From: Verrucomicrobiota bacterium
Lineage (GTDB): Bacteria; Verrucomicrobiota; Verrucomicrobiia; Chthoniobacterales; UBA6821
Assembly (NCBI GenBank): GCA_008932965.1
Contig: WBXG01000007.1
Location: forward strand, 5,902 to 37,901
Length of the DNA: 32,000 bases
Direction of reading: 5' to 3'
The translations under genes and the position numbers were made by a program. The notes beneath the pieces were generated by a model that saw only the letters and a list, made by a program, of their open reading frames with translations, was not told the origin of the DNA and did no database searches. Shown here one piece after another: positions 1,259 through 30,546 of the stretch (position 1 is the first letter of the stretch; each line of letters opens with the position of its first letter).

Positions 1259-3439
1259 CTATGCATAATGCGAGCTAGAATTTTTTTTCTTGAAATAAAA
1301 ATCATGTATCCAACAAATGATTCGCTGGATAAGGAATATCCCAGCACGTTCCAATTCAGATTTTTGCTGCCACTGATAAGCTCGCACTGGAATTGTTTCT
1401 TCTATGAGTTTTTTCCAAAATTTTAGAGTTGCTTCTTGAGTAAAAGCTTGTCCCGATCGGTGGCCATTTTGAACAAGCATAGCACGCAAACTTGGGTTTT
1501 CTTGAAGTTGTTTGAGTTGTTTAAAAACTTCTTTAAGTGATGTAGCCACGAGATAATCTATCTCAGGATTCCCATCAGCAGCATAAGCAGAATCGGATCC
1601 TCCAATAAAGGGAACTCCTGCTAACCAAGCATTATAGAGCTTTGTAGCAGGCTTATTCATATGCAAAGAGCGAGAGAAGCTGCGAATAGCAATCACACAG
1701 TCAACATCAGTATAATTATTCCACTCATGATATCCTCGTATTTGAAAATGAAGTCCAAGCTCTTCATATAGCCTGCGATGCCATTTTTGAGAACGAAGCT
1801 CCGGGGCAAGGTTTTGTATTTCCCCAAAGAAGCAGACATTTTCAAAGCGTGTTCCTCGAGTTGGATCACGTGGTTTTAGAAAAGGTTGAGGCCAGTGAGG
1901 AACATAAATGGAATTTGGAAGATAACGGGTATAATTTCTATTTTCCACTAAATGCAAATCCACACTAGGATGCGGTGTTTTATCAGCAAGAATATCGACT
2001 AGAAATAAATGTGGATTTATAGATTTTCGTCTGAGTAACGGGTTTAAAAGCTTGCTCATCGTAATACAAATTCCAGTATTTTTTTCAAAAGGAAACTCGG
2101 TGGAAAGAGTAGAGTTGACTCCAATTTTCTTAAGCAAACTCCATGTTTGATAAATCCAACATGTAATTGTAGGGCTTTTGATTGGTTGATTTAATGCCAT
2201 TGGGTCTCCTTCTTTCCATTTTTCTCCCCAATCATCAGCAGAAAGAAAATATTCCATGATATGAAATGAAATCTTATCAAGAAACTTGATGGGAATCTGT
2301 TTCTCCATTTTTTTCTGGAAATAGTTGGTATAATACCGAAGAAAAAAAGTAGATAAGGAAGGGACCTTTGCATGAATGCTTGCACACGTTGCAAATAAGA
2401 TGGAGGCACGTTTTAAAGCGTTCGCTGATGCTTTCCAGTACCAAGAAAGGAGTGGATGTTCCGGCTTTTTTTCTTGAGCCTCTAAAGAATAAAAAGTGGC
2501 ATCTATACTATTTTCGAGGGAAAATGCTGCCTTTCTCCAATATTCTGCTAACCGCTTATCTATTGTTAAAGCCTCACTTGCAGATGTGCGGTAGAAAATA
2601 ATTTTTTTATACACCTTTACCTGAGGAGGTAACTGATTATCTTCAAATTCTAATTTCTCTGCTTTGCAGGTCAGTTTCTTCCAGAGGTCATCGACAGCAT
2701 TCAAAGCTGCTAAAGCAGCTAGTGAATACTCAATAGCCTGATCTTCGTTGCCGATTTGAGTGGCCATTGCGGCTTCGATCCGTAACGCTAGAGCATTCTG
2801 ATTTAATTCGAGAAGCTCATTCCAGAGGTGTTTATAGGGTGCTATTTTCTCTGGTGAAATGGATGCAGTATGAATATGGATATTGGCAAGATGAGCTGCC
2901 GCATATGCTGCTTTTACCCAACGATGGGTTAACACTATATTCAAAAAAGCATCATGGTTGTTAAGCGCTTGTGCTTTTTTAAATAAGGAAACTGCCTTGA
3001 TAGCATAACGAGAGGCTTCAGGAAGAGTCGACTCATAGTGGATTGCTGCCTGCGATACTTCTTGTATTTCTTGATCAAAATCTTTTGAGGCTTGTGCCTG
3101 CGCAAAAGCTAACCAATAACGGTACGCCGAGCCTGCTTCCCTATTTTCATTCCTATGGAAGGCCCAATAGGAGATTTCTGATTTTTGAAGCTTGTGATCC
3201 AAATAGTAATTGCCTTCTTGGTTCCAATAGGTCAAAAACGCAATCGCATCAATACTATGGGTTCGTTGAGGTTTGAGTAGCGCAGTTGCAGTTCTTTGTT
3301 GATCTACGAATGCGGCCTCATCGCTTGCAAGCCTCCAATATGCAGCAAGTCTCTCGTTTCCGAAAGCAGAAGCCCTGAGAGCTTGCTCACGATAGAGAGC
3401 AATTTCATCTCTTGCTTCTCTCTGAATTGAAAAATCCAT
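1259..3439 (-). CDS. two-domain protein: an N-terminal Trp-rich helical-repeat region plus a C-terminal ~330-aa domain paralogous to the next gene (possible glycan-modifying enzyme, family not recognised)
   Basis: 726-aa ORF. The C-terminal half aligns colinearly with the whole product of 3462..4475. Shared blocks are CWIYQTW, FLVDI.AD..PHP, LHLV.NR, PHW.QP.L.PRDP.RG, NLAPELRS, DVD.VIAIR.FS and KPATKLYNAWLAGVPFIGG.DSAYAADG. The N-terminal half has recurring xYW(R/K)xA motifs (AAYWRLA, ISYWAF, YRYWLAF, AEYWRKA, SWYWKAS). Function is inferred only from the glycan-gene neighbourhood. Confidence 0.55.
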   Translation of the reverse strand: MDFSIQREARDEIALYREQALRASAFGNERLAAYWRLASDEAAFVDQQRTATALLKPQRTHSIDAIAFLTYWNQEGNYYLDHKLQKSEISYWAFHRNENREAGSAYRYWLAFAQAQASKDFDQEIQEVSQAAIHYESTLPEASRYAIKAVSLFKKAQALNNHDAFLNIVLTHRWVKAAYAAAHLANIHIHTASISPEKIAPYKHLWNELLELNQNALALRIEAAMATQIGNEDQAIEYSLAALAALNAVDDLWKKLTCKAEKLEFEDNQLPPQVKVYKKIIFYRTSASEALTIDKRLAEYWRKAAFSLENSIDATFYSLEAQEKKPEHPLLSWYWKASANALKRASILFATCASIHAKVPSLSTFFLRYYTNYFQKKMEKQIPIKFLDKISFHIMEYFLSADDWGEKWKEGDPMALNQPIKSPTITCWIYQTWSLLKKIGVNSTLSTEFPFEKNTGICITMSKLLNPLLRRKSINPHLFLVDILADKTPHPSVDLHLVENRNYTRYLPNSIYVPHWPQPFLKPRDPTRGTRFENVCFFGEIQNLAPELRSQKWHRRLYEELGLHFQIRGYHEWNNYTDVDCVIAIRSFSRSLHMNKPATKLYNAWLAGVPFIGGSDSAYAADGNPEIDYLVATSLKEVFKQLKQLQENPSLRAMLVQNGHRSGQAFTQEATLKFWKKLIEETIPVRAYQWQQKSELERAGIFLIQRIICWIHDFYFKKKNSSSHYA

Positions 3440-3461
3440 AAAATTCTTTTTTCAAAAAAAC

Positions 3462-4475
3462 CTACCGTGTTACACGATCGAAATAACAAGAAAAGTGTTG
3501 CATGAGGTGCAAACAGGAATGTTCCAATGAGGATCGTTGCTTCCACTTGAGAGCTTCTGCAGGAAGCGTTGTTTGAACTAATTTCTTCCAACGATCGAGC
3601 GTTGCTTCCCTTGTATAGGAAACCACTGATTCCGATCCCTTCTGGACTAATTTCCAACGCATTACTGGATCTTCCTTGAGTTTTTTTAAATATTGAAAAA
3701 CTTTTTCAGCAGAGGTTCCTACAAGATAATCTTCTCCAGGATGACCATCAGCAGCATAGGCAGAATCGATTCCTCCAATGAAGGGAACACCAGCAAGCCA
3801 GGCATTATAAAGTTTGGTTGCTGGTTTATGAAGGTGCCTTGAGCCAGAAAAGTCACGAATTGCAATTACTCCATCGACATCGCTGTAATCATGCCAACGT
3901 CGTGCTTCTCTGATTTCTAGCAAAATACCAAGTTCTCTATGAAGTTGTTCTTGCCATGCTGCAGATCGTAGCTCCGGTGCAAGATTGCTACTGTCACCAA
4001 AAAAAGAGATTTTTTCAAAAAGAGAGCCACGTGCTGGGTCACGTGGAATCAGATGAGGTTGTGTCCAATGTGGCATAAAAAGGGAGCGCGGTAATTGTCT
4101 AGCATGAGCTCTGTTTTGAACAAGATGAAGATGCGCTGCAGGATGGGGCAACCCATCAGCAACAATATCGACAAGAAAGTAATTGTGAGAAATCCACTTT
4201 TTACCATTTTTTTTAAACTCCTCTTTGAAACAAGATACTATAGATGGAAAAGAGCTACTCATAGCGATGATAATACCCCCTTCATGAGGGAGGCTACCGA
4301 GAAGTGAACATGGAATCTTTTCCTGGATGAGCAAAGCCCATGTTTGATAGATCCAGCATTGAGCTGTGGCCCCTTTCCCTTTTTCTTCGAGTGGAATAAT
4401 CTGATTTTTTTCTAAGGCTTCTATCCAGAATTGGTTTGGAAAATGTTCTTTGGGCAAGATAAATGAGATAGGCAT
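3462..4475 (-). CDS. stand-alone paralog of the C-terminal domain of the 1259..3439 protein (possible glycan-modifying enzyme)
   Basis: 337-aa ORF lying 22 nt upstream of its paralog on the same strand. Long identical blocks, e.g. KPATKLYNAWLAGVPFIGG and DSAYAADG. Confidence 0.55.
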   Translation of the reverse strand: MPISFILPKEHFPNQFWIEALEKNQIIPLEEKGKGATAQCWIYQTWALLIQEKIPCSLLGSLPHEGGIIIAMSSSFPSIVSCFKEEFKKNGKKWISHNYFLVDIVADGLPHPAAHLHLVQNRAHARQLPRSLFMPHWTQPHLIPRDPARGSLFEKISFFGDSSNLAPELRSAAWQEQLHRELGILLEIREARRWHDYSDVDGVIAIRDFSGSRHLHKPATKLYNAWLAGVPFIGGIDSAYAADGHPGEDYLVGTSAEKVFQYLKKLKEDPVMRWKLVQKGSESVVSYTREATLDRWKKLVQTTLPAEALKWKQRSSLEHSCLHLMQHFSCYFDRVTR

Positions 4476-6243: not shown

Positions 6244-7379
6244 AGCGAGTATTGCATGTCATCGATCATCTTCAATTGGGTGGAGCTCAATCTTTATTGT
6301 TAGATTTAGTAACCTTAATGGAAAAATCAGAATGGCACTGTGAAGTTGCTTCCATGCATGGACGTGGTCTTTTTGCAGAACTCTTAGAAAAAAAAGGAAT
6401 CTCAGTCCATTCCCTCTCTCCCTCCTTATGGCCACCGTGTTATCTTGCTGCATTTGCAAGCCTCCAATCTCAATTTGATATTCTTCATTTTCATCTTTCG
6501 GGTTCCAATTGGATTGCCAAACCCATGGCAGCTCTCCTTGGAAATCAACCCCGGATATCACATGATCATGGGAGTGATGATTTTCGTTTTCGTGGTAGGG
6601 GATTTGTTTTAATGGATGCCATCATGCATCGCTTTTCAACACACACGATTGCCGTCACACCGGAGGTAAAACAATTTTTAACCCATTATGAAGCTCTTAC
6701 TGCGGAGTCAGTCACAGCGATCTCAAACGGAATCAACGTGGAAGAATTCCGTCCTTTTACTTCAGAAGAAAAAAAAGAAGCCCGTCTGTTTTTTGATTTG
6801 CCCTCGGAAGCATTTGTGGTGGGCACGGTAGGCCGTCTTGCGCCTGAAAAAAACCAAACACTTTTCTTGAAAGCCGCTAAAATTGCTCTCGAGCAAGGAT
6901 TGAAAGCTACTTTTCTAATTGCAGGGACAGGCCCCGAAGAAGCAGCTTTAAAAAAATGTGCTGCACAACTTGGCATCGAACATAGTGTTCGCTTTTTAGG
7001 ACAGATTAAAGATCGCGTCCAGCTCTACCGTTCATTAGATCTATTTGTACTAACCTCACGCTTTGAAGGTTTGCCAATGGTACTTTTAGAGGCCATGGCT
7101 TCAGGAATACCAGTTGTAAGCACCGATCTTGAGGGAATTCATCATGCACTTGAGGGAGGACGACATGGTCTCTTGATTCCCTCGGAGGATGAGATAGCTT
7201 TAAGTGACTGCTTGCTGCACTCCCATGAACGAATCCAACAAGAATCTTTGCGAAGTGCACGTCTTAAAGTAGAATCAGATTTTAGCGCTCAGAAAGCTGC
7301 TAAGAAGTTAGGGGATTTATATCAGTCACTTCTGAGCCCGAATATTTCACACCGATTACCTATGGAAGCCGGAAAGTAA
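6240..7379 (+). CDS. glycosyltransferase family 1 (GT4-type)
   Basis: HVIDHLQLGGAQSLLLDL, GRLAPEKNQ and LTSRFEGLPMVLLEAMASGIPVV (EX7E motif). The last ~47 nt, including the stop codon, lie inside repeat copy 7333..7610. Confidence 0.85.
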   Translation: MKRVLHVIDHLQLGGAQSLLLDLVTLMEKSEWHCEVASMHGRGLFAELLEKKGISVHSLSPSLWPPCYLAAFASLQSQFDILHFHLSGSNWIAKPMAALLGNQPRISHDHGSDDFRFRGRGFVLMDAIMHRFSTHTIAVTPEVKQFLTHYEALTAESVTAISNGINVEEFRPFTSEEKKEARLFFDLPSEAFVVGTVGRLAPEKNQTLFLKAAKIALEQGLKATFLIAGTGPEEAALKKCAAQLGIEHSVRFLGQIKDRVQLYRSLDLFVLTSRFEGLPMVLLEAMASGIPVVSTDLEGIHHALEGGRHGLLIPSEDEIALSDCLLHSHERIQQESLRSARLKVESDFSAQKAAKKLGDLYQSLLSPNISHRLPMEAGK

Positions 7380-7610
7380 GTGTGGACGCTTTATTGAGCT
7401 CGAAGTCTTCCTTGGGCGGTAGGTATTCATACAGCCCTGCATCAAAATGCTTGCCTGCGTTGACTCACTCGCTCCCACTCGTTTCCCCCTTTTAGGGCTT
7501 CCTAAGAGGCTCCTAAGAGACAGTCTCCCCCGCGGTCTCCAGACCACCGGTGGTGCCCTATCAGTCTTCGCGACCTCCTCTTTACGATCAGTATGAAATA
7601 TGCGGGCTGG
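7333..7610 (-). mobile_element. fold-back (MITE-like) element, full copy carrying the nested GC-rich cassette (7460..7555)
   Basis: The termini CCCGAATATTTCACACCGAT ... GATCAGTATGAAATATGCGGG are inverted repeats. The interior is colinear with copies 19599..19804 and 29326..29585. The flanks are degenerate here (TGAG/CTGG). Confidence 0.9.
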
Positions 7611-10349: not shown

Positions 10350-10402
10350 TTAACCCGAATATTTCATACTGATCGTGACGAGGAGGTCGCGAAGCCAGAT
10401 GT
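10350..10402 (+). repeat. fold-back element family: left-arm fragment
   Basis: TTAA-CCCGAATATTTCATACTGATCGTGACGAGGAGGTCGCGAAGCC is near-identical to the start of copy 18683..18866. No convincing right end. Confidence 0.8.
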
Positions 10403-10543
10403 GTGATACTGTAGACTCTTATTTTGAGTTGGGCCGTCTTATCAAGGCCTTCTATACATTCATCTGAGAGAGGTTCGGTTATTTTGTTATCTATTTTTTC
10501 TTTTAAATGTCTTTTTTCAATACTCCATTCCTAAACATGTTCC

Positions 10544-11710
10544 ATGACTAAACGAGATTATTATGAAATATTGGGGGTCTCTCGTACTGCCCAGCAAGAA
10601 GAAATTAAGCGCGCCTATCGTAAGCTAGCTGTCAAATATCATCCTGACAAAAATCCTGGAGATGCATCTTCTGAAGCCTCTTTTAAAGAGCTTGCTGAGG
10701 CCTATGATATTATTAGCGATGCCGATAAAAGAGCTGCTTATGATCGCTATGGCCATGCTGCTTTTCAAGGTGCCGGAGGTCGTGGTGCAGCTGGAGGTTT
10801 TCATGATCCTTTTGATCTCTTTCGTGAGATGTTTGCAGGTCAAGGAGGTAAGGCAGGAATGGGAGGAATGGGAGGAGGAATTTTTGAGCAATTTTTTCAG
10901 GGTGGGGCAGAGGCTTCCTCGCGTGATGGAAAACAACGAGGGGCAGATCTGCGTTATGATCTTCAAATTACCCTAGAAGAGGCGTTCTCTGGCTGTGAGA
11001 AAGAAATAGAAATCCAGAAACTTGATGCTTGTCAGACCTGTGATGGCTCTGGAGCTGCTCCAGGGGCTAAAACGGCATCATGCTCTCTATGCCAAGGGAG
11101 AGGTCAGGTAGCAATGTCTCGTGGATTTTTTCAGGTAGTTCAAACGTGTCCTCAATGTCATGGAGCTGGTCAAGTTATCGATAAGCCATGCCAAAACTGT
11201 CGAGGAGAGGGGTGTGAAGAGAGGGTCTCACGTATTACTCTTAAAATTCCTGCAGGCATCGATGAAGGGGCACGACTTCGCTCTTCGGGATCTGGTGAAG
11301 CTGGGATAAGAGGTGGTGGGAAAGGGGATCTTTATGTCATTATTCATCTCAAAAAACATTCTGTTTTTGAACGAGAGGGGATGAATCTTCATTGTCAGAT
11401 CCCTATTCCATTTTCGATAGCTGCCTTGGGGGGGGAAGTCAAGGTTCCAACGCTGTGTGGGCTTGTAGATTTAAAAATTGTTTCAGGAACACAGAGTGGT
11501 TCTACCTTTTCTATTCGTGGTTCAGGAATGCCTTCACTGCAAAGCCCACGAAAAGGAGATCTCTACGTACGGGTTGAAGTCGAAGTTCCAACAAAGCTCA
11601 ATGCAGAACAGCGTCAGGCTCTAGAAAAATTTTCTCAACTTTGTGGGGAGGAAAATACCCCCTTACATCGCAGTTTTACAGAACGGCTTAAAGACTTTTT
11701 AAGTAATTAA
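10544..11710 (+). CDS. dnaJ: molecular chaperone DnaJ
   Basis: J-domain with HPD (KYHPDKNP), a Gly/Phe-rich linker, and four CxxCxGxG repeats ([32 protein letters not shown]). Confidence 0.95.
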
Positions 11711-18616: not shown

Positions 18617-18686
18617 TGAACGTAGTAATGATGAGCTCTCCACAAGCCGTAGTAGTAGTAGATTTAGTATGAAATATTTGGGCTAG
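18617..18686 (+). repeat. fold-back element family: right-arm fragment abutting the next full copy
   Basis: ...AACGTAGTAATGATGAGCTCTCCACAAGCCGTAGTAGTAGTAGATTTAGTATGAAATATTTGGG-CTAG parallels the right arm of 18683..18866 (AACGCAGCATCCATCTGACTTCCCAGCTTCCGTAGTAGATTGGTATGAAATATTTGGG-CTAG). It shares the CTAG at 18683-18686 with that copy. Confidence 0.75.
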
Positions 18687-18866
18687 CCCAAATATTTCAT
18701 ACTGATCGTGACGAGGAAGCTGCGAAGGGTGATGGGGCAAGGCAGTCGAGCATTTTGATGCTGGGCTGTATGAACACATACCGCCCAAGTCAAAATGGGA
18801 GTCTAACGCAGCATCCATCTGACTTCCCAGCTTCCGTAGTAGATTGGTATGAAATATTTGGGCTAG
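18683..18866 (+). mobile_element. fold-back (MITE-like) element, full core copy, used here as the orientation reference
   Basis: CTAG-CCCAAATATTTCATACTGATCG ... GATTGGTATGAAATATTTGGG-CTAG. The whole 184 bp is a long imperfect palindrome centred near 18772. Confidence 0.9.
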
Positions 18867-18870
18867 GATC

Positions 18871-19598: not shown

Positions 19599-19804
19599 TT
19601 AACCCGGATATTTCATTCCGATCACCTGCGGAAGCCGGGAAGCTAGGGTTGATGCTGCGTTGGTCTCGAATTGTGATTCGGGAGGTAGGGACTCTACAGC
19701 CCTGCATCAAAATGCTCGCCTGCGTTGACTCGCTCGCTCCCACGCGGTCTCCCATCAGCCTTCGCAGCCTCCTCATCACGATCAGTATGAAATATCCAGG
19801 TTAA
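19599..19804 (-). mobile_element. fold-back element, full copy with a minimal cassette (19725..19752)
   Basis: TTAA-CCCGGATATTTCATTCCGATC ... GATCAGTATGAAATATCCAGG-TTAA. Lies between the ROK remnant and the clpS stop codon. Confidence 0.9.
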
Positions 19805-21343: not shown

Positions 21344-21418
21344 AGTTATCCCCATCCGTATTGAAAAGTAAAACTAGTTTGGCTGCCTTGCATAGATTTG
21401 AACTATGACAAGCAGATT
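21344..21418. repeat. 75-bp direct repeat, copy 1: duplicate of the tRNA-Gln 3' half (nt 36-74) plus 36 bp of downstream flank
   Basis: AGTTATCCCCATCCGTATTGAAAAGTAAAACTAGTTTGGCTGCCTTGCATAGATTTGAACTATGACAAGCAGATT is identical to 21518..21592 except for one T/C difference. Confidence 0.9.
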
Positions 21419-21517
21419 GACTCGCTCGCTCTCGCTCGTCTCGCCCCTTTGGGGTTGCTTTATCAAAGCAATCTACCCCGCGGCTTTGCAGCCGCCGGTG
21501 TTCAGTCTGAATCTGCT
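21419..21517 (+). mobile_element. 99-bp GC-rich cassette inserted between the two 75-bp repeats
   Basis: The preceding TT (21417-18, the last two bases of repeat copy 1) plus GACTCGCTCGCTCTCGCTCGTCTCGCCCCTTTGGGGTTGCTTTATCAAAGCAATCTACCCCGCGGCTTTGCAGCCGCCGGTG... is almost base-for-base the reverse complement of 22611..22684. The cassette ends in an inverted copy of the anticodon-stem sequence (AATCTGCT versus AGCAGATT). Confidence 0.8.
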
Positions 21518-21592
21518 AGTTATCCCCATCCGTATTGAAAAGTAAAACTAGCTTGGCTGCCTTGCATAGATTTGAACTATGACAAGCAGATT
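21518..21592. repeat. 75-bp direct repeat, copy 2 (part of the intact tRNA-Gln locus)
   Basis: See copy 1. It covers the 36-bp flank plus tRNA nt 36-74. Confidence 0.9.
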
Positions 21593-21627
21593 CAGAGTCT
21601 GCTGTGCTACCGTTACACCACAAGGCA
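21554..21627 (-). tRNA. tRNA-Gln: tRNA-Gln (anticodon CUG), CCA encoded
   Basis: Folded by hand from TGCCTTGTGGTGTAACGGTAGCACAGCAGACTCTGAATCTGCTTGTCATAGTTCAAATCTATGCAAGGCAGCCA. The 7-bp acceptor stem starts with a U1-A72 pair and has discriminator G, as in bacterial tRNA-Gln. The D stem is GTGT/GCAC. The anticodon stem is GCAGA/TCTGC with loop CTCTGAA. The T stem is CATAG/CTATG with loop TTCAAAT. Confidence 0.9.
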
Positions 21628-22216: not shown

Positions 22217-22401
22217 TTAACCCGAATATTTCATCCTGATCTACTACGGAAGACGGGAAGCAAGGGTGGATGCTGCGTTAGGCTCCCATTTTGACTTGGA
22301 CAGTACCTACTCATACAGTCCTGCATCAAAATACGTGTCTGCCTTGCCCCATCAGCCTTCGCAGCTTCCTCGTCACGACTAGTATGAAATATTCGGTTTA
22401 A
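22217..22401 (-). mobile_element. fold-back element, full core copy
   Basis: TTAA-CCCGAATATTTCATCCTGATC ... GACTAGTATGAAATATTCGGT-TTAA. Colinear with the reverse complement of 18683..18866. Confidence 0.9.
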
Positions 22402-22510: not shown

Positions 22511-22864
22511 TTAACCCGCCTACTTCATACCGATTCTGCTGCAGCTTGCGAACACCTGATAGATACTGCGTCAGTCTCGAATTGCTCCTCGGGCAGTATG
22601 ACTACCGGCAGCGGGGAAGCTGCGGGAGAGATTGTCGCAAAGCGACAACCCGAAGGGCGAGACGAGCGAGAGCGAGCGAGTCAAACTACAGCCGTCGTCG
22701 CAATCCATCACCTTCGTTGACTCGCTCGCTCCCGTTCGTCTCGCCCTTTCAGGGCTGCCCCCTAAAGCCAGGGCAGTCTCCACCACGGTCTCCCGACCGC
22801 AGGTGGTTTCTGTATCAGGATTCGAGGCGCCTTGCGACGAACCAGTATGAAATATGCGGGTTAA
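22511..22864 (-). mobile_element. composite 354-bp fold-back element with two inverted copies of the GC-rich cassette (22611..22684 inverted, 22717..22806 direct)
   Basis: TTAA-CCCGCCTACTTCATACCGAT ... ACCAGTATGAAATATGCGGG-TTAA. The left ~90 nt is colinear with copy 25457..25640. Internal inverted repeat: GAAGGGCGAGACGAGCGAGAGCGAGCGAGTCAA / TTGACTCGCTCGCTCCCGTTCGTCTCGCCCTTTC. Confidence 0.9.
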
Positions 22865-24085: not shown

Positions 24086-24253
24086 CAGCCACCATCGCCT
24101 TCTTTGACTCGCGCGATCCAGCTCGTTTCTTTTTTAAGGGCTTACTAACCTAACAACTGAGTTAGTAATCGCTCTGGTGGTCTTCCTGTCACGTCTGGTT
24201 TCTATACCAGGCCGCTTACCTTATAACATTTCAGTGTGAAATATCTGTGCTAG
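24086..24253 (-). repeat. fold-back element family: right-half fragment with cassette (24104..24182)
   Basis: CCACCATCGCCTTCTTTGACTCGCGCGATCCAGCTCGTTTC...GGTTTCTATACCAGG...TCAGTGTGAAATATCTGTG-CTAG parallels the right half of 22511..22864. Confidence 0.7.
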
Positions 24254-25314
24254 GCTATGGTTACCTCTTTGCAGAGATAGACATCTTGAATGGACTGAAT
24301 CAATTGAATTCCTTCAGCCATGGGGCGCTGAAAGGCTTTGCGTCCGCAGATAAGGCCTGTTCCTCCTGCACGTTTATTGATCACAGCTGTTTTAACAGCA
24401 TCAGCAAAATCGTGTTCGCCCGAAGCTCCTCCACTGTTGATAAGCCCAGCACGTCCCATGTAACAGTTGGCTACTTGATAGCGGCACAAGTCAATAGGAT
24501 GGTCTGAAGTAAGTTCAGTATATATGCGTTCATCGAGCTTTCCATAGCTGGAGTTACCTGTATTAAGAGCCTTGTAGCCGCCATTGTTCTCAGGAAGTTT
24601 TTGTTTGATGATATCTGCTTCGATGGTGACTCCGAGATGATTAGCTTGGCCAGTTAAGTCGGCCGAAACGTGATAATCCTTGTCTTTTTTGAATGCCGGA
24701 TTACGCAAGTAGCACCAGAGGACAGTAGCCATTCCAAGCTCATGAGCATGATGAAAGACCTCTGCAACCTCAACAATTTCTTTGTCGGCATCTTCAGAAC
24801 CAAAATAGATCGTGGCTCCGACTGCAGCTGCTCCCATGTCGTAGGCCTCTTCAACAGTACCAAACATAATTTCTTGATGTTTATTGGGGTAGGTGAGCAA
24901 TTCGTTGTGGTTAAGTTTTACGAGAAAAGGAATATGATGAGCATATTTACGAGCAACCATTCCAAGCACACCACAAGTAGAGGCAACGGCACTGCATCCT
25001 GCCTCAATAGCCAATCGTACAATGTTTTCAGGGTCAAAATAGATCGGATTTTTTGCAAAGCTAGCACCTGCAGAGTGCTCTACTCCTTGATCAACCGGGA
25101 GTATGGAAAGATAGCCTGTTCCACCAAGGCGGCCATGAGCATACATCCGCTGTAGATTGCCCAAAGTACGTAGATTACGATCAGAATGAGAAAAAATACG
25201 GTCTACAAAATCAGGCCCGGGTAAATTCAAAAGCTCTTTTGCAATGGTCATCGACTTGTGCGTGAGAAGTGAGTCTGCTTCTGATCCGAGATATTGTTGA
25301 ATAGTAGAAATCAT
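24250..25314 (-). CDS. fbaB: class I fructose-bisphosphate aldolase (FbaB/DhnA type)
   Basis: 354 aa. [31 protein letters not shown] and the overall length match the FbaB family. The TAG stop is the CTAG flank of a repeat fragment. Confidence 0.8.
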
Positions 25315-25456
25315 AAAAAGAGTATTTAGAAGTTTGGTAATTTTTAGCTACTTGGTCCAATGAGTTTGGAATATCCTAGCGAAGTAAGTATTTAAATTAG
25401 TAGCATTAGCGGAAGTGTACAATTTCAAAATTGGAAAAAAGGAAATAAGGGTCAGG

Positions 25457-25640
25457 CTAACCCGCCCATTTCATACCGATTCTGCTGCGGCTTGCGAACA
25501 CCTGATGGATACTGCGTCAGCTTCGAATTGCTCCTCGGGCAGTAGGGACTCATACAGCCCTACATCAAAATGCTCGCCTGCCTCACCCCATCAGCCCCCG
25601 CGGCCTCCTCGTCACGATCAGTATGAAATATCCGGGTTAA
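25457..25640 (-). mobile_element. fold-back element, full core copy (variant left arm shared with 22511..22864)
   Basis: CTAA-CCCGCCCATTTCATACCGAT ... GATCAGTATGAAATATCCGGG-TTAA. Confidence 0.9.
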
Positions 25641-29325: not shown

Positions 29326-29585
29326 TTAGCCCGCATATTTCATACCGATCTACTGCGAAGACCGGGAAGCCAGGATGGATGCTGCGTTGATCTCGAAGTC
29401 CGCCTCGGGCAGTATGAAACATACAGCCGTCATCAAAATACTCATCTGCGTTGACTCGCTCGCTCTCGCTCTTTCAGGGCTTTCTAGGGCTTTCTAGGGC
29501 TTTCTAGGGCTTCTAAAGGCAGTCGGCAGTCTCTCGACCTTCGGTGGTGCCCCTTTAGCCTTAGCGGCCTTCTCGTTACAATCAG
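29326..29585 (-). mobile_element. fold-back element with cassette (29451..29549); right TIR truncated
   Basis: TTAG-CCCGCATATTTCATACCGATCTACTGCGAAGACCGGGAAGCC... The right end stops at ...CTTCTCGTTACAATCAG and lacks the TATGAAATAT part. Confidence 0.85.
29471..29520. repeat. 10-nt tandem repeat (TTTCTAGGGC x3 perfect, plus degenerate flanking units) in the cassette core
   Basis: CTTTCAGGGC TTTCTAGGGC TTTCTAGGGC TTTCTAGGGC TTCTAAAGGC, read directly. Confidence 0.9.
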
Positions 29586-29640: not shown

Positions 29641-30546
29641 TCACATTTTTTGAGATGCTCGGAGTAGTGGGTGTTTTCTTTTTTCTTTCTCAGAGGAAGG
29701 TGATCTTTGAAAGCGCAATGGCACATTCTTTTTTTTAGAAGGGACCACTCGTACTCTCGCTGGTGATGTTGCAGTAGCTTTGACTAGAGTCTCAAGTTCT
29801 TGAGTGGTAAGCTCTCGATATTTTCCTAATCCGAGTTGGCGTAGTTTCAGCGGGCCAAGGCGCGTGCGTACGAGTCGCTTGACATCAAAACCGAGCTGAC
29901 CAAGCATCACACGGATCTGGCGCTTCAAGCCTTGATGCAGGACGAGTTTGATTTTACATGGTCCGAGTTGGGTTACCGATTCAACACGAGCGACCGCTCC
30001 CTCAATCCATGTTCCTTTTTTCAAGGCAGCAGCAGCTTTTTCAGTAAAAGGATGGTCCAAAATCACCTCATATTCTTTATCAATTCCACGTGAGGGATGG
30101 AGGAGCTGCTGAGACAAAGCGCCATCATTGGTGATAAGCAGGAGACCTTCGCTTTCCTTATCCAGGCGGCCAACGTGAAAGAGTGTGGAGGCCTCTGAAG
30201 GAAGAAGATCAAAAATGGTTTTCGCAGCAAAACGATCGGAACGAGTGCAAACATAACCAGCTGGTTTATGCAGCAATAAGTAGCGCAGAGGAGCTTGTCG
30301 TATTTGTTTTCCGTTCACTCGGACATCATCCTGAGGAGCGATTTTTTTTGATAAATTACGACAGAAGCTACCATTAACTGCCACTGAACCCTTGAGGATC
30401 AGTTCTTCCACAGAACGTCGTGACCCAAAACCAGCCGAGGCAAGAAATTTATTAATACGTATCCCATCTAACGCGGATATTTCACGCTGATTAAGACGAG
30501 GAGGCTGCGAAGGCTGATGGGGCTCGGAGAAAAATGGAGTTTTCAA
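29641..30546 (-). CDS. rluB: 23S rRNA pseudouridine synthase (RluB/RsuA family)
   Basis: S4 domain (RINKFLASAGFGSRRSVEELI), catalytic RLDKESEGLLLITNDG, and a basic C-tail. Residues ~9-27 are encoded by repeat fragment 30468..30523. Confidence 0.85.
   Translation of the reverse strand: MKTPFFSEPHQPSQPPRLNQREISALDGIRINKFLASAGFGSRRSVEELILKGSVAVNGSFCRNLSKKIAPQDDVRVNGKQIRQAPLRYLLLHKPAGYVCTRSDRFAAKTIFDLLPSEASTLFHVGRLDKESEGLLLITNDGALSQQLLHPSRGIDKEYEVILDHPFTEKAAAALKKGTWIEGAVARVESVTQLGPCKIKLVLHQGLKRQIRVMLGQLGFDVKRLVRTRLGPLKLRQLGLGKYRELTTQELETLVKATATSPARVRVVPSKKKNVPLRFQRSPSSEKEKRKHPLLRASQKM
30468..30523 (+). repeat. fold-back element family: left-arm fragment embedded in the 5' end of rluB
   Basis: CTAA-CGCGGATATTTCACGCTGATTAAGACGAGGAGGCTGCGAAGGCTGATGGGGC versus the reference CCCAAATATTTCATACTGATCGTGACGAGGAAGCTGCGAAGGGTGATGGGGC. 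Confidence 0.75.

Follow-up and report, generated by a model that had tools for sequence, protein, structure and literature searches.

A three-hairpin dispersed repeat family of Verrucomicrobiota, probably mobile, with likeness to REP/BIME and IS200/IS605-derived elements

Repeats of the REP/BIME/REPIN-RAYT kind, known from E. coli and Pseudomonas, are short, GC-rich, mostly intergenic hairpin repeats of high copy number (PMC3333891, PMC3116915, PMC6006769), and they may also sit in frame within genes (PMC6006769). A GTAG "guide" tetranucleotide marks the 5' foot of the hairpin (PMC6006769), and REPs with a CGTC tag have an 8-9 bp stem that starts with A/T pairs (PMC3733652). The E. coli enzyme TnpA-REP requires only a tagged hairpin and a C^T dinucleotide (carets mark cleavage or insertion points throughout), and it can assemble tandem copies (PMC3333891). 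Elements of the IS200/IS605 family lack inverted and direct repeats, carry a guide sequence 5' of their subterminal hairpins, integrate on the 3' side of a short target, and are strand-specific, acting at the lagging-strand template of the replication fork (PMC3333891, PMC5027513). Here we describe an element resembling both, found in a window of 32,000 nucleotides (GC content 42%) from a Verrucomicrobiota bacterium (contig WBXG01000007.1, positions 5,902 to 37,901), for which a preliminary description had reported seven copies of a cassette with conserved ends and a hypervariable core. The cassette is almost certainly a copy of a dispersed repeat family of about 80-90 bases and three hairpins that occurs in many Verrucomicrobiota and has the habits of a small mobile parasite. 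The family is new, being absent from Rfam 15 and from the papers searched, and is a variant of the REP/BIME and IS200/IS605-derived small non-autonomous elements.

One genome per species (185,579 species) was scanned with an exact 23-nt version of the 5' arm of the unit, and at least 101 loci matched, the DNA flanking the unit differing wholly between them. Among the matches listed, essentially all loci were metagenome-assembled genomes (MAGs) of Verrucomicrobiota, with Chthoniobacterales, Terrimicrobiaceae, 'Spartobacteria', some Verrucomicrobiaceae, and Limisphaerales as carriers. An initial idea of a cyanobacterial genome with small nested repeats, prompted by the GC content and the abundance of miniature transposable elements, was abandoned on this evidence. 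A covariance model (R1) built on 29 diverse copies found 130 copies in 698 kb of matched loci, mostly between open reading frames (ORFs), and 7 further copies on 4 IMG/VR viral contigs. R1 also recovered all seven window copies, with refined limits (Table 1), and the 15-mer TTGACTCGCTCGCTC showed 7 matches in the window at up to 3 mismatches against 0.68 expected, a count reached in 0 of 100 shuffles. Reading all copies confirmed the layout of conserved 5' and 3' ends around a copy-specific core. The comparison with Rfam proposed in the preliminary description, run on Rfam 15, revealed no family matching the cassette: only tRNA reached its gathering score, and at E values up to 10 the only others were generic miRNA models for long hairpins, which matched the inverted pair of copies. 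The literature searched held no relevant paper with the unit sequence or with Chthoniobacter repeats, and blastn against a plasmid collection gave no match to the unit.

The copies from IMG/VR (L102, L103, L104, L105, and L106; loci outside the window are cited by such numbers) were full-length and lay on 4 viral-class contigs, two of which carried two copies; these may possibly be prophage regions or mark a route of horizontal spread. The unit was also present in L048, from a MAG labelled Burkholderiales, and L094, from a MAG labelled Blastochloris, labels that may reflect mis-binning; L048 also has the same host-repeat context as the window.

The unit is about 78-90 nt long. It begins with a C/T-rich, non-palindromic 5' arm of 24-26 nt (GACTCGCTCGCTCCCGCTCGTCTC) with a period of about 10 nt, followed by hairpin H1 (GCCC-TNC-GGGC), hairpin H2 of free sequence, a linker (GTCT-N-CCCC), hairpin H3 with a conserved YCCC loop, and a conserved 3' tail (CCGGTGNT). 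GTCT is conserved just 5' of both H1 (CGTCTC, then GCCC) and H3. Helical pairing of H3 continues through CC/GG and an N:N' pair and ends 1 base before the 3' end (CCGGTG-N'-T). The N of this pair is the base that follows GTCT, and N' is the last base but one of the unit; the two columns (col204:col277) read CG 30, GC 29, and AU 10 times. Because the pairing of H3 runs to N:N', the 3' boundary lies one base past the foot of a long imperfect hairpin. The ends of the unit (GAC... and ...GGTGNT) are non-complementary, and terminal inverted repeats (TIRs) are absent. In 63 of about 100 distinct copies, H1 has a C-G-closed TNC triloop (TTC 45, TGC 9, TCC 8, TAC 1), and H2 frequently carries a TNC loop too. 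Read on the complementary strand, this loop is C-GNA-G, an unusually stable DNA mini-hairpin motif.

Related units in L064 (652-756), L070 (4983-5071 and 5157-5245), and L010 (6191-6363) have the H2-linker-H3 3' module in common and carry other 5' arms (TTGATTCCCAGATTTCCC... and TGGACTCGCGCTCTCCCGAGCG...), one such unit being nested in the arm of another. The shared module with alternative arms suggests a modular superfamily.

Pairing was evaluated in an alignment of 130 copies (A2). Standard pairs filled 91.1% of the stem cells compared with 69.6% after shuffling, sliding the 3' partners by 1-3 columns reduced pairing to 29-48%, and cells changed on both sides numbered 372 against 102 in the shuffled control; a hand-made alignment (A1) agreed with these results. 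Selection on a hairpin, one of two explanations put forward at the outset, is favoured by these double changes, and the stems are kept by Watson-Crick compensatory change. This includes the 3' stem, which had been noted to vary while staying paired and which covaries far above chance. Folded as single-stranded DNA, the intact window copies gave z scores of -1.8 to -3.6 relative to shuffled sequence, and the damaged copies gave values near 0 (-0.40 for 7460, +0.19 for 24104, and +0.56 for 29451; copies are named by their first position).

The same alignment bears on whether the hairpins act as DNA or RNA. G:U and U:G cells (50) were as frequent as A:C and C:A cells (53), a parity expected of Watson-Crick DNA hairpins, or of neutral decay of copies from perfect masters, whereas selection on RNA would tolerate G:U and not A:C. 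This points to hairpins of Watson-Crick DNA rather than RNA. A structured RNA serving the host, such as a multi-copy small RNA, a 3'-UTR stabiliser, or a terminator, with the arm as a pairing or protein-binding region, could also produce strong covariation and the conserved YCCC loop, and would fit the high conservation of orthologous copies and the compensatory H2 changes in L041, both described below, as well as the position of the complement in MFD genomes, which in 19 of 25 cases is downstream of a gene with the same orientation. We nevertheless consider such an RNA unlikely. Besides the lack of preference for G:U and of any Rfam family, the unit has no fixed orientation relative to neighbouring genes, all four arrangements occurring with a mild bias (68:45), copies lie within RHS coding sequences and other repeats, and decayed copies persist. 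Nor was any promoter- or terminator-like signal present at the copies: the unit contains no sigma-70 promoter or intrinsic terminator, its TTGAC lacking a following -10 box.

The cores proved to be stable between species, contrary to the hypervariability first proposed. The copy at 22717-22807 was 97% identical, core included, to copies in L003, L048, and L082, and the copy in a tRNA-Gln gene remnant (21417-21502) was 93% identical to its ortholog in L017, a Chthoniobacterales MAG syntenic with the window, which itself carries ordinary housekeeping genes. All six differences from L017 lie in loops or unpaired bases. Between the same two sequences, syntenic genes were 70-83% identical and the adjacent 34-nt spacer about 76%. 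In the more distant ortholog L041, H2 reads CTGCTGC/GCAGCAG against TTGCTTT/AAAGCAA in the window, giving three compensatory pairs at a single locus.

Coordinates of the four core hairpins reported earlier were confirmed in the sequence, as was the existence of tandem-repeat cores (a 10-mer repeated 4.3 times at 29471-29512 by TRF, and an 11-mer duplication at 7498-7520). These tandem repeats are slippage products of an ordinary hairpin: L007, L042, and L069 carry an intact hairpin (CTGCCTAAAGGCAG; GGGCTGCCTAAAGGCAG) at the position in the host repeat that copies 7460 and 29451 occupy in the window. The "minimal form" at 19725 is an internal deletion, resembled by a deletion between GTCTC repeats in L093. 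The view that cores are unrelated from copy to copy holds only in part, and fails for 7460, 22717, and 29451, which all derive from one CTGCC-TAAA-GGCAG-type hairpin. The broken copies 7460, 24104, 29451, and 19725 remain unrepaired. Because cores are stable across species and broken copies stay broken, the diversity in the window is attributed to old subfamily divergence and decay, with no turnover at the site.

The second early explanation, regeneration of palindromes at the core position or core hypermutation, for example by quasi-palindrome template switching that makes single changes paired, would account for the great rarity of one-sided (G:U) intermediates relative to double changes in H2 and H3, and for the several compensatory H2 variants found within single MFD genomes. 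It is very unlikely in view of the stability of cores across species, the fixed core of each subfamily, and the failure of any damaged or deleted copy, including that of L093, to be restored.

Five comparisons of filled with empty sites were used to define the insertion. The inserted segment was always GAC...N'T, with neither target duplication nor inverted termini; it followed TT in 4 of 5 comparisons, the exception being the second RHS site, with CT in the diverged empty paralog, and the reconstructed empty sites read TT^C in 4 of 5. In the MITE (a miniature transposable element with inverted repeats) that hosts most window copies, the empty site CTGCCTTG^CCCCATCAG is present in 22217 and in the reverse complement of 18684, and 25455 is similar (alignment A3); subtracting GAC...GGTGGT from filled MITE copies gives the total length of empty ones. 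Cutting GAC...GGTAGT out of 22601-22684 restores GGGCAGTATGAAAC^TACAGCC, as in MITE 29326, and at the tRNA-Gln site the unit follows the TT of the anticodon loop (AGCAGATT^CAGAG). The remaining two sites are in RHS/YD-repeat genes. At the first (filled, L043 1706-3664; empty, L043 72-1472 and L074 2493-3548) the gain was 78 nt plus six extra bases, and at the second (filled, L067; empty paralogs, L043 and L074) the net gain was exactly 78 nt, the reading frame being open at both.

Across 56 distinct contexts, the base before TT was never C and the base after the unit was C in 29. Perfect head-to-tail arrays occurred where the unit ends in TT (L038, period 87), and the window and the syntenic L017 carry the unit in different sets of intergenic regions. 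Models with a target-site duplication (TSD) of TT, TG, or TTG fitted fewer junctions than duplication-free insertion after TT. The unit also has neither of the two features that define TIR-type MITEs, namely TIRs and a target duplication of fixed length. It can be said with good confidence that the unit is or was mobile and non-autonomous, and that it enters 3' of TT (preferably D-T-T^C) without TIR or TSD.

Copies within RHS/YD-repeat genes, with the frame open, were located at L043 2240-2319, L067 859-938 and 1053-1132, L073 1001-1083, and L074 2172-2251. Uninterrupted RHS paralogs adjoin filled ones, and the L074 copy lies at the junction of two different RHS segments. A rule that unit lengths be multiples of three, suggested by these inserts, was ruled out by the observed split of 51:35:11. 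Short tandem arrays of 7-8-nt pyrimidine-rich repeats (CACCATT, CTGACTTT, CCTTCGTT, and CTCTGTG) border many copies, at one end or both (L001, L018, L022, L034, L038, and L063), and include the TT^C target; an array of (GGAGGCTG)n is present in L017.

The host MITE (ends TTAACCCGGATATTTCATAC) is represented in the window by about ten copies or fragments. A further reading is that the cassette is merely an internal segment of one MITE subfamily in ordinary decay. Five of the seven window copies (7460, 19725, 22717, 24104, and 29451) do lie at the homologous MITE position in alignment A3, in agreement with the shared position first noted for 7333-7610, 19599-19804, and 29326-29585, and several of them show slippage and deletions. 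This account is scarcely credible as the full explanation, since cassette-free MITE copies show a clean empty site, the unit is found free of the MITE in over 50 distinct contexts and dozens of genomes, and the window copies 21417 and 22601 are at other sites; it describes how most window copies multiplied. Movement independent of the host MITE, as suspected at the outset, follows from the more than 100 unrelated contexts that the unit occupies in other genomes and from the existence of filled and empty sites.

Alignment A3 would be accounted for by one ancestral insertion into the MITE followed by MITE amplification, which gave rise to the five copies at the homologous position. The context of 22511-22864 had been called different. 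This is true of the inverted copy, an extra insertion, and not of the forward copy, which occupies the homologous position in a diverged MITE subfamily. The inverted copy (22601-22684) is a later, separate insertion into this MITE that created a REPIN-like head-to-head doublet; its arm is 97% identical to that of the tRNA-Gln copy over 33 nt. The tRNA-Gln copy is an old separate insertion common to L017 and L041. Its limits, first given as 21419-21517, were refined to 21417-21502: the cassette itself stands, and 21503-21517 is a remnant of the tRNA-Gln anticodon stem.

The orientation of the unit was compared with GC skew, from which alone leading and lagging strands were inferred. In five related MFD03250 MAGs, with absolute skew of 0.05-0.36 over whole 8-kb loci, all 41 of 41 copies had the C-rich written strand on the C-rich genome strand, and within two contigs unit orientation switched along with the sign of the skew. 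By crude gene calls, the MFD03250 loci have 86 genes facing against the unit and 63 facing with it, so that transcription is no explanation of the polarity. In these loci (L001, L013, L020, L034, L038, L051, L070, and others), skew is largely independent of gene orientation, and its sign flips in c28468 and c3246. In the window lineage the sign of polarity was reversed (16:2), but this carries no information, the host MITE having a polarity of its own: across the window and related MAGs, its copies split 34:10 relative to skew when they lack the unit, a bias not expected of a TIR element, and 11:0 when they bear it. This lineage was accordingly discarded as evidence on polarity.

Such polarity, flipping with skew, could instead mark a chromosome element that has been domesticated and is oriented by replication, for instance a protein-binding or ssDNA-hairpin signal, its mobility being only secondary. 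The invariant arm with its period of about 10 nt, conserved in place, and the stable GNA-type loops on the strand that the skew rule makes the lagging-strand template would agree with this. We judge it distinctly unlikely, because polarity is weak in other lineages and reversed where the unit rides in the MITE, because tandem, nested, and intragenic copies occur, and because no partner protein is known. A broader proposal takes the unit to be something other than ordinary selfish DNA: an ssDNA-hairpin element, specific to one replication strand and conserved throughout an order, that either serves as substrate for a strand-specific mobilising or editing enzyme of an unrecognised kind or is a domesticated signal read on one such strand. 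It would jointly explain the invariant arm, the conservation above neighbouring genes, and the 41/41 polarity, and is rather unlikely.

Insertion at TT without TIR or TSD, upkeep of hairpins, polarity, tandem arrays, nesting, and in-frame copies are hallmarks of ssDNA elements handled by HUH/Y1 enzymes, and mobilisation in trans is therefore favoured. On balance, we lean towards a new REP/BIME- or IS200/IS605-like non-autonomous element mobilised in trans as ssDNA. A tyrosine enzyme of the HUH/Y1 class, of the RAYT (TnpA-REP) or IS200/IS605 TnpA kind and encoded elsewhere in the genome, would read the tagged hairpins, cut at a low-specificity T^ site, and mobilise the unit as ssDNA; in the window lineage, one unit would have landed in the TIR-MITE and then multiplied passively with it. 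The HUH/ssDNA mechanism as such, proposed by likeness to elements that these enzymes handle, is tentative and somewhat more apt to be wrong than right.

Several observations weigh against mobilisation in trans as ssDNA. No transposase was found beside any copy in about 740 kb. The target is a dinucleotide only, compared with the 4-5 nt of IS200/IS605, and under the GC-skew rule the strand with IS608 top-strand geometry, which is the C-rich one, is the leading-strand template, the opposite of IS608. Outside the MFD03250 lineage, polarity was weak (20:14 where absolute skew was at least 0.05). The conservation of the orthologous tRNA-Gln unit above its neighbour genes suggests constraint in place or gene conversion. 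Invariance of the arm across loci is partly by construction, as the scan demanded an exact 5' arm, and alignment A2 was fitted to model R1. The only Y1 genes near copies were rejected as the cognate enzyme, their ends being unrelated to the unit and neither being flanked by it. These were the sole matches of a tblastn search of 106 loci and the window with two approximate Y1 queries (L010 503-904 and L094 2883-3839).

The L094 match is part of a RAYT-like Y1 gene (318 aa) bounded by 34-nt terminal inverted repeats of its own (2816-3846), and the L010 match is a 133-aa IS200-like tnpA (503-904). All-against-all clustering of 1,173 locus ORFs revealed no recurrent transposase and brought the RHS insertions to the surface. 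Strict guide/target complementarity at the left end was considered and set aside, no convincing pairing being seen.

Compared with REPs, the unit likewise has an unpaired conserved tetranucleotide at the 5' foot of its hairpins, GTCT at H1 and H3 standing where REPs have their guide, and its stems vary by compensatory change. It also forms an inverted doublet (22601-22807), tandem arrays, mosaics with other modules, and in-frame intragenic copies, with cleavage sites of apparent low specificity. Its dispersal is of high copy number and mostly extragenic with inverted doublets, as in REPs, although doublets are not the rule (one in the window) and single units dominate. The differences are considerable: the unit has three hairpins in direct order plus an arm, whereas a REP is one 20-40-nt palindrome; its tag is GTCT rather than GT[AG]G or CGTC, and the REP arrangement of such a tag 0-2 nt 5' of a palindrome is not found. 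A CGTC does lie 2 nt from H1, but the H1 stem consists of 4 GC pairs. Furthermore, the unit is shared across orders whereas REPs are species-specific, and no REPtron (a RAYT gene flanked by repeats) was found for it in the searched loci.

With IS200/IS605 and their ORF-less derivatives, the palindrome-associated transposable elements (PATEs), the unit shares the absence of TIRs and target duplication that characterises PATEs. It also recalls them in having different hairpins near its two ends, H1 standing 24 nt in from the left and the H3 helix coming within 1 nt of the right through the covarying N:N' pair, in a left end that always abuts a fixed short sequence, and, in the MFD03250 MAGs, in an orientation tied to the replication strand. 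Pairing of the bases 5' of the right hairpin with the 3' terminus resembles the pairing of guide and cleavage site. It differs in being much shorter, in having only TT rather than 4-5 nt as the fixed flank, in a polarity sign opposite to IS608 under the usual skew rule, and in that no tnpA- or tnpB-bearing parent of full length turned up in the loci examined.

Other known repeats share single features with the unit. BOX elements of Streptococcus pneumoniae (boxA-boxB(n)-boxC) also have conserved end modules, a variable middle, strong predicted folding, and a dispersed intergenic distribution without a transposase of their own (PMC3049150). They differ in that BOX varies in boxB copy number, whereas the middle hairpin of the unit varies in sequence, and in that the BOX host is a Firmicute. 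To our knowledge, the BOX sequence is unrelated to the verrucomicrobial unit. Rickettsia palindromic elements (RPEs) are palindromic repeats that can lie within protein-coding genes and leave the reading frame unbroken, as the in-frame copies in RHS/YD genes do, but copies of the unit are mostly intergenic and are not confined to lengths that are multiples of three. IS91/ISCR elements enter at, or directly beside, a di- or tetranucleotide that is not duplicated, lack TIRs, have a hairpin near the 3' end, and form head-to-tail copies. The unit resembles these and Helitrons (PMC5876387) in its target without duplication, absence of TIRs, hairpin a few bases from the 3' end, and head-to-tail copies; IS91/ISCR and Helitrons are kilobases long and encode a Rep/helicase, whereas the unit has no linked gene of that kind and unrelated end sequences.

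These results define, at the level of a phylum, a family of structured mobile DNA in Verrucomicrobiota, a group with mostly uncharted repeats, and the precise insertion rule and covariance model enable its annotation. The family lends itself to testing hairpin-guided ssDNA mobility where the target is a dinucleotide and strand polarity is perfect, accounts for odd ORFs such as those with in-frame inserts in RHS toxin genes, helps to flag mis-binned contigs, and shows a small element hitchhiking inside another.

Table 1. Copies of the unit, host MITEs, and the tRNA-Gln site in the window
Feature	Position	Strand	Evidence	Parts
Intact copy, inverted member of head-to-head pair	22601-22684	-	cmsearch 90.7 bits, E 2.7e-22	On + strand: tail ACTACCGG 22601-22608; H3 22609-22622; H2 22632-22648; H1 22649-22657; arm ends GAGTCAA 22684
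Spacer of 32 nt between inverted copies, host-MITE sequence	22685-22716		Repeat search, MITE alignment A3	
Intact copy	22717-22807	+	R1 83.5 bits	Arm 22717-22742; H1 GCCC/GGGC 22743-22755; H2 CTGCCC/GGGCAG 22755-22776; linker 22777-22785; H3 CGGTC/GACCG 22786-22799; tail CAGGTGGT 22800-22807
Intact copy in anticodon loop of partial tRNA-Gln copy, after TT	21417-21502	+	R1 84.2 bits	H1 21444-21454; H2 21455-21471; H3 21480-21495; tail 21496-21502
MITE-borne copy, H2 destroyed by 11-mer tandem duplication (7498-7520)	7460-7554	+	R1 70.0 bits	
Internally deleted copy	19725-19755	+	R1 21.4 bits, 60 model positions deleted	Arm fused to GCGGTCTCC of H3
Degenerate copy in truncated MITE fragment	24104-24199	+	R1 43.3 bits	Right TIR of fragment 24229-24255
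MITE-borne copy, slippage expansion of TTTCAGGGC	29451-29549	+	R1 30.5 bits for 29451-29519; by eye on to about 29549	
TIR-MITE family, ends TTAACCCGGATATTTCATAC...GTATGAAATATCCGGGTTAA	7333-7610, 10350-10576, 18684-18868, 19599-19804, 22217-22401, 22511-22864, 25455-25640, 29326-29585, 30469-30523			
Host MITE bearing both copies of inverted pair	22511-22864	+	Repeat search, alignment A3	
Relatives of 22511-22864 with cassette	7333-7610, 19599-19804, 29326-29585			
Cassette-free relatives (empty sites)	22217-22401, 25455-25640, 18684-18868(-)			
tRNA-Gln(CTG)	21554-21627	-	ARAGORN, Rfam	
Partial second tRNA-Gln copy, anticodon stem to 3' end, split by cassette	21380-21418 and remnant 21503-21517	-		
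Direct repeat of 75 nt, 99%, bracketing cassette	21344-21418, 21518-21592			

The 75-nt repeat around the tRNA-Gln copy forms a period-174 A-B-A partial tandem duplication of a 29-nt spacer and the 3' part of tRNA-Gln. L017 shows the same layout, with only a 46-nt tRNA part duplicated. Downstream of the intact gene, the partial tRNA-Gln copy has its start precisely at the anticodon stem, which recalls an old att-site scar. Reverse nesting was also observed, the host MITE being inserted in the H2 loop (TAA) of the unit in L032 (6916-6992) and L095 (1813-1911). Elsewhere in the window, a 240-nt direct repeat (71%; 1484-1723 and 3657-3896) lies inside the adjoining minus-strand ORFs 1259-3439 and 3462-4475, which are probably tandem paralogs.

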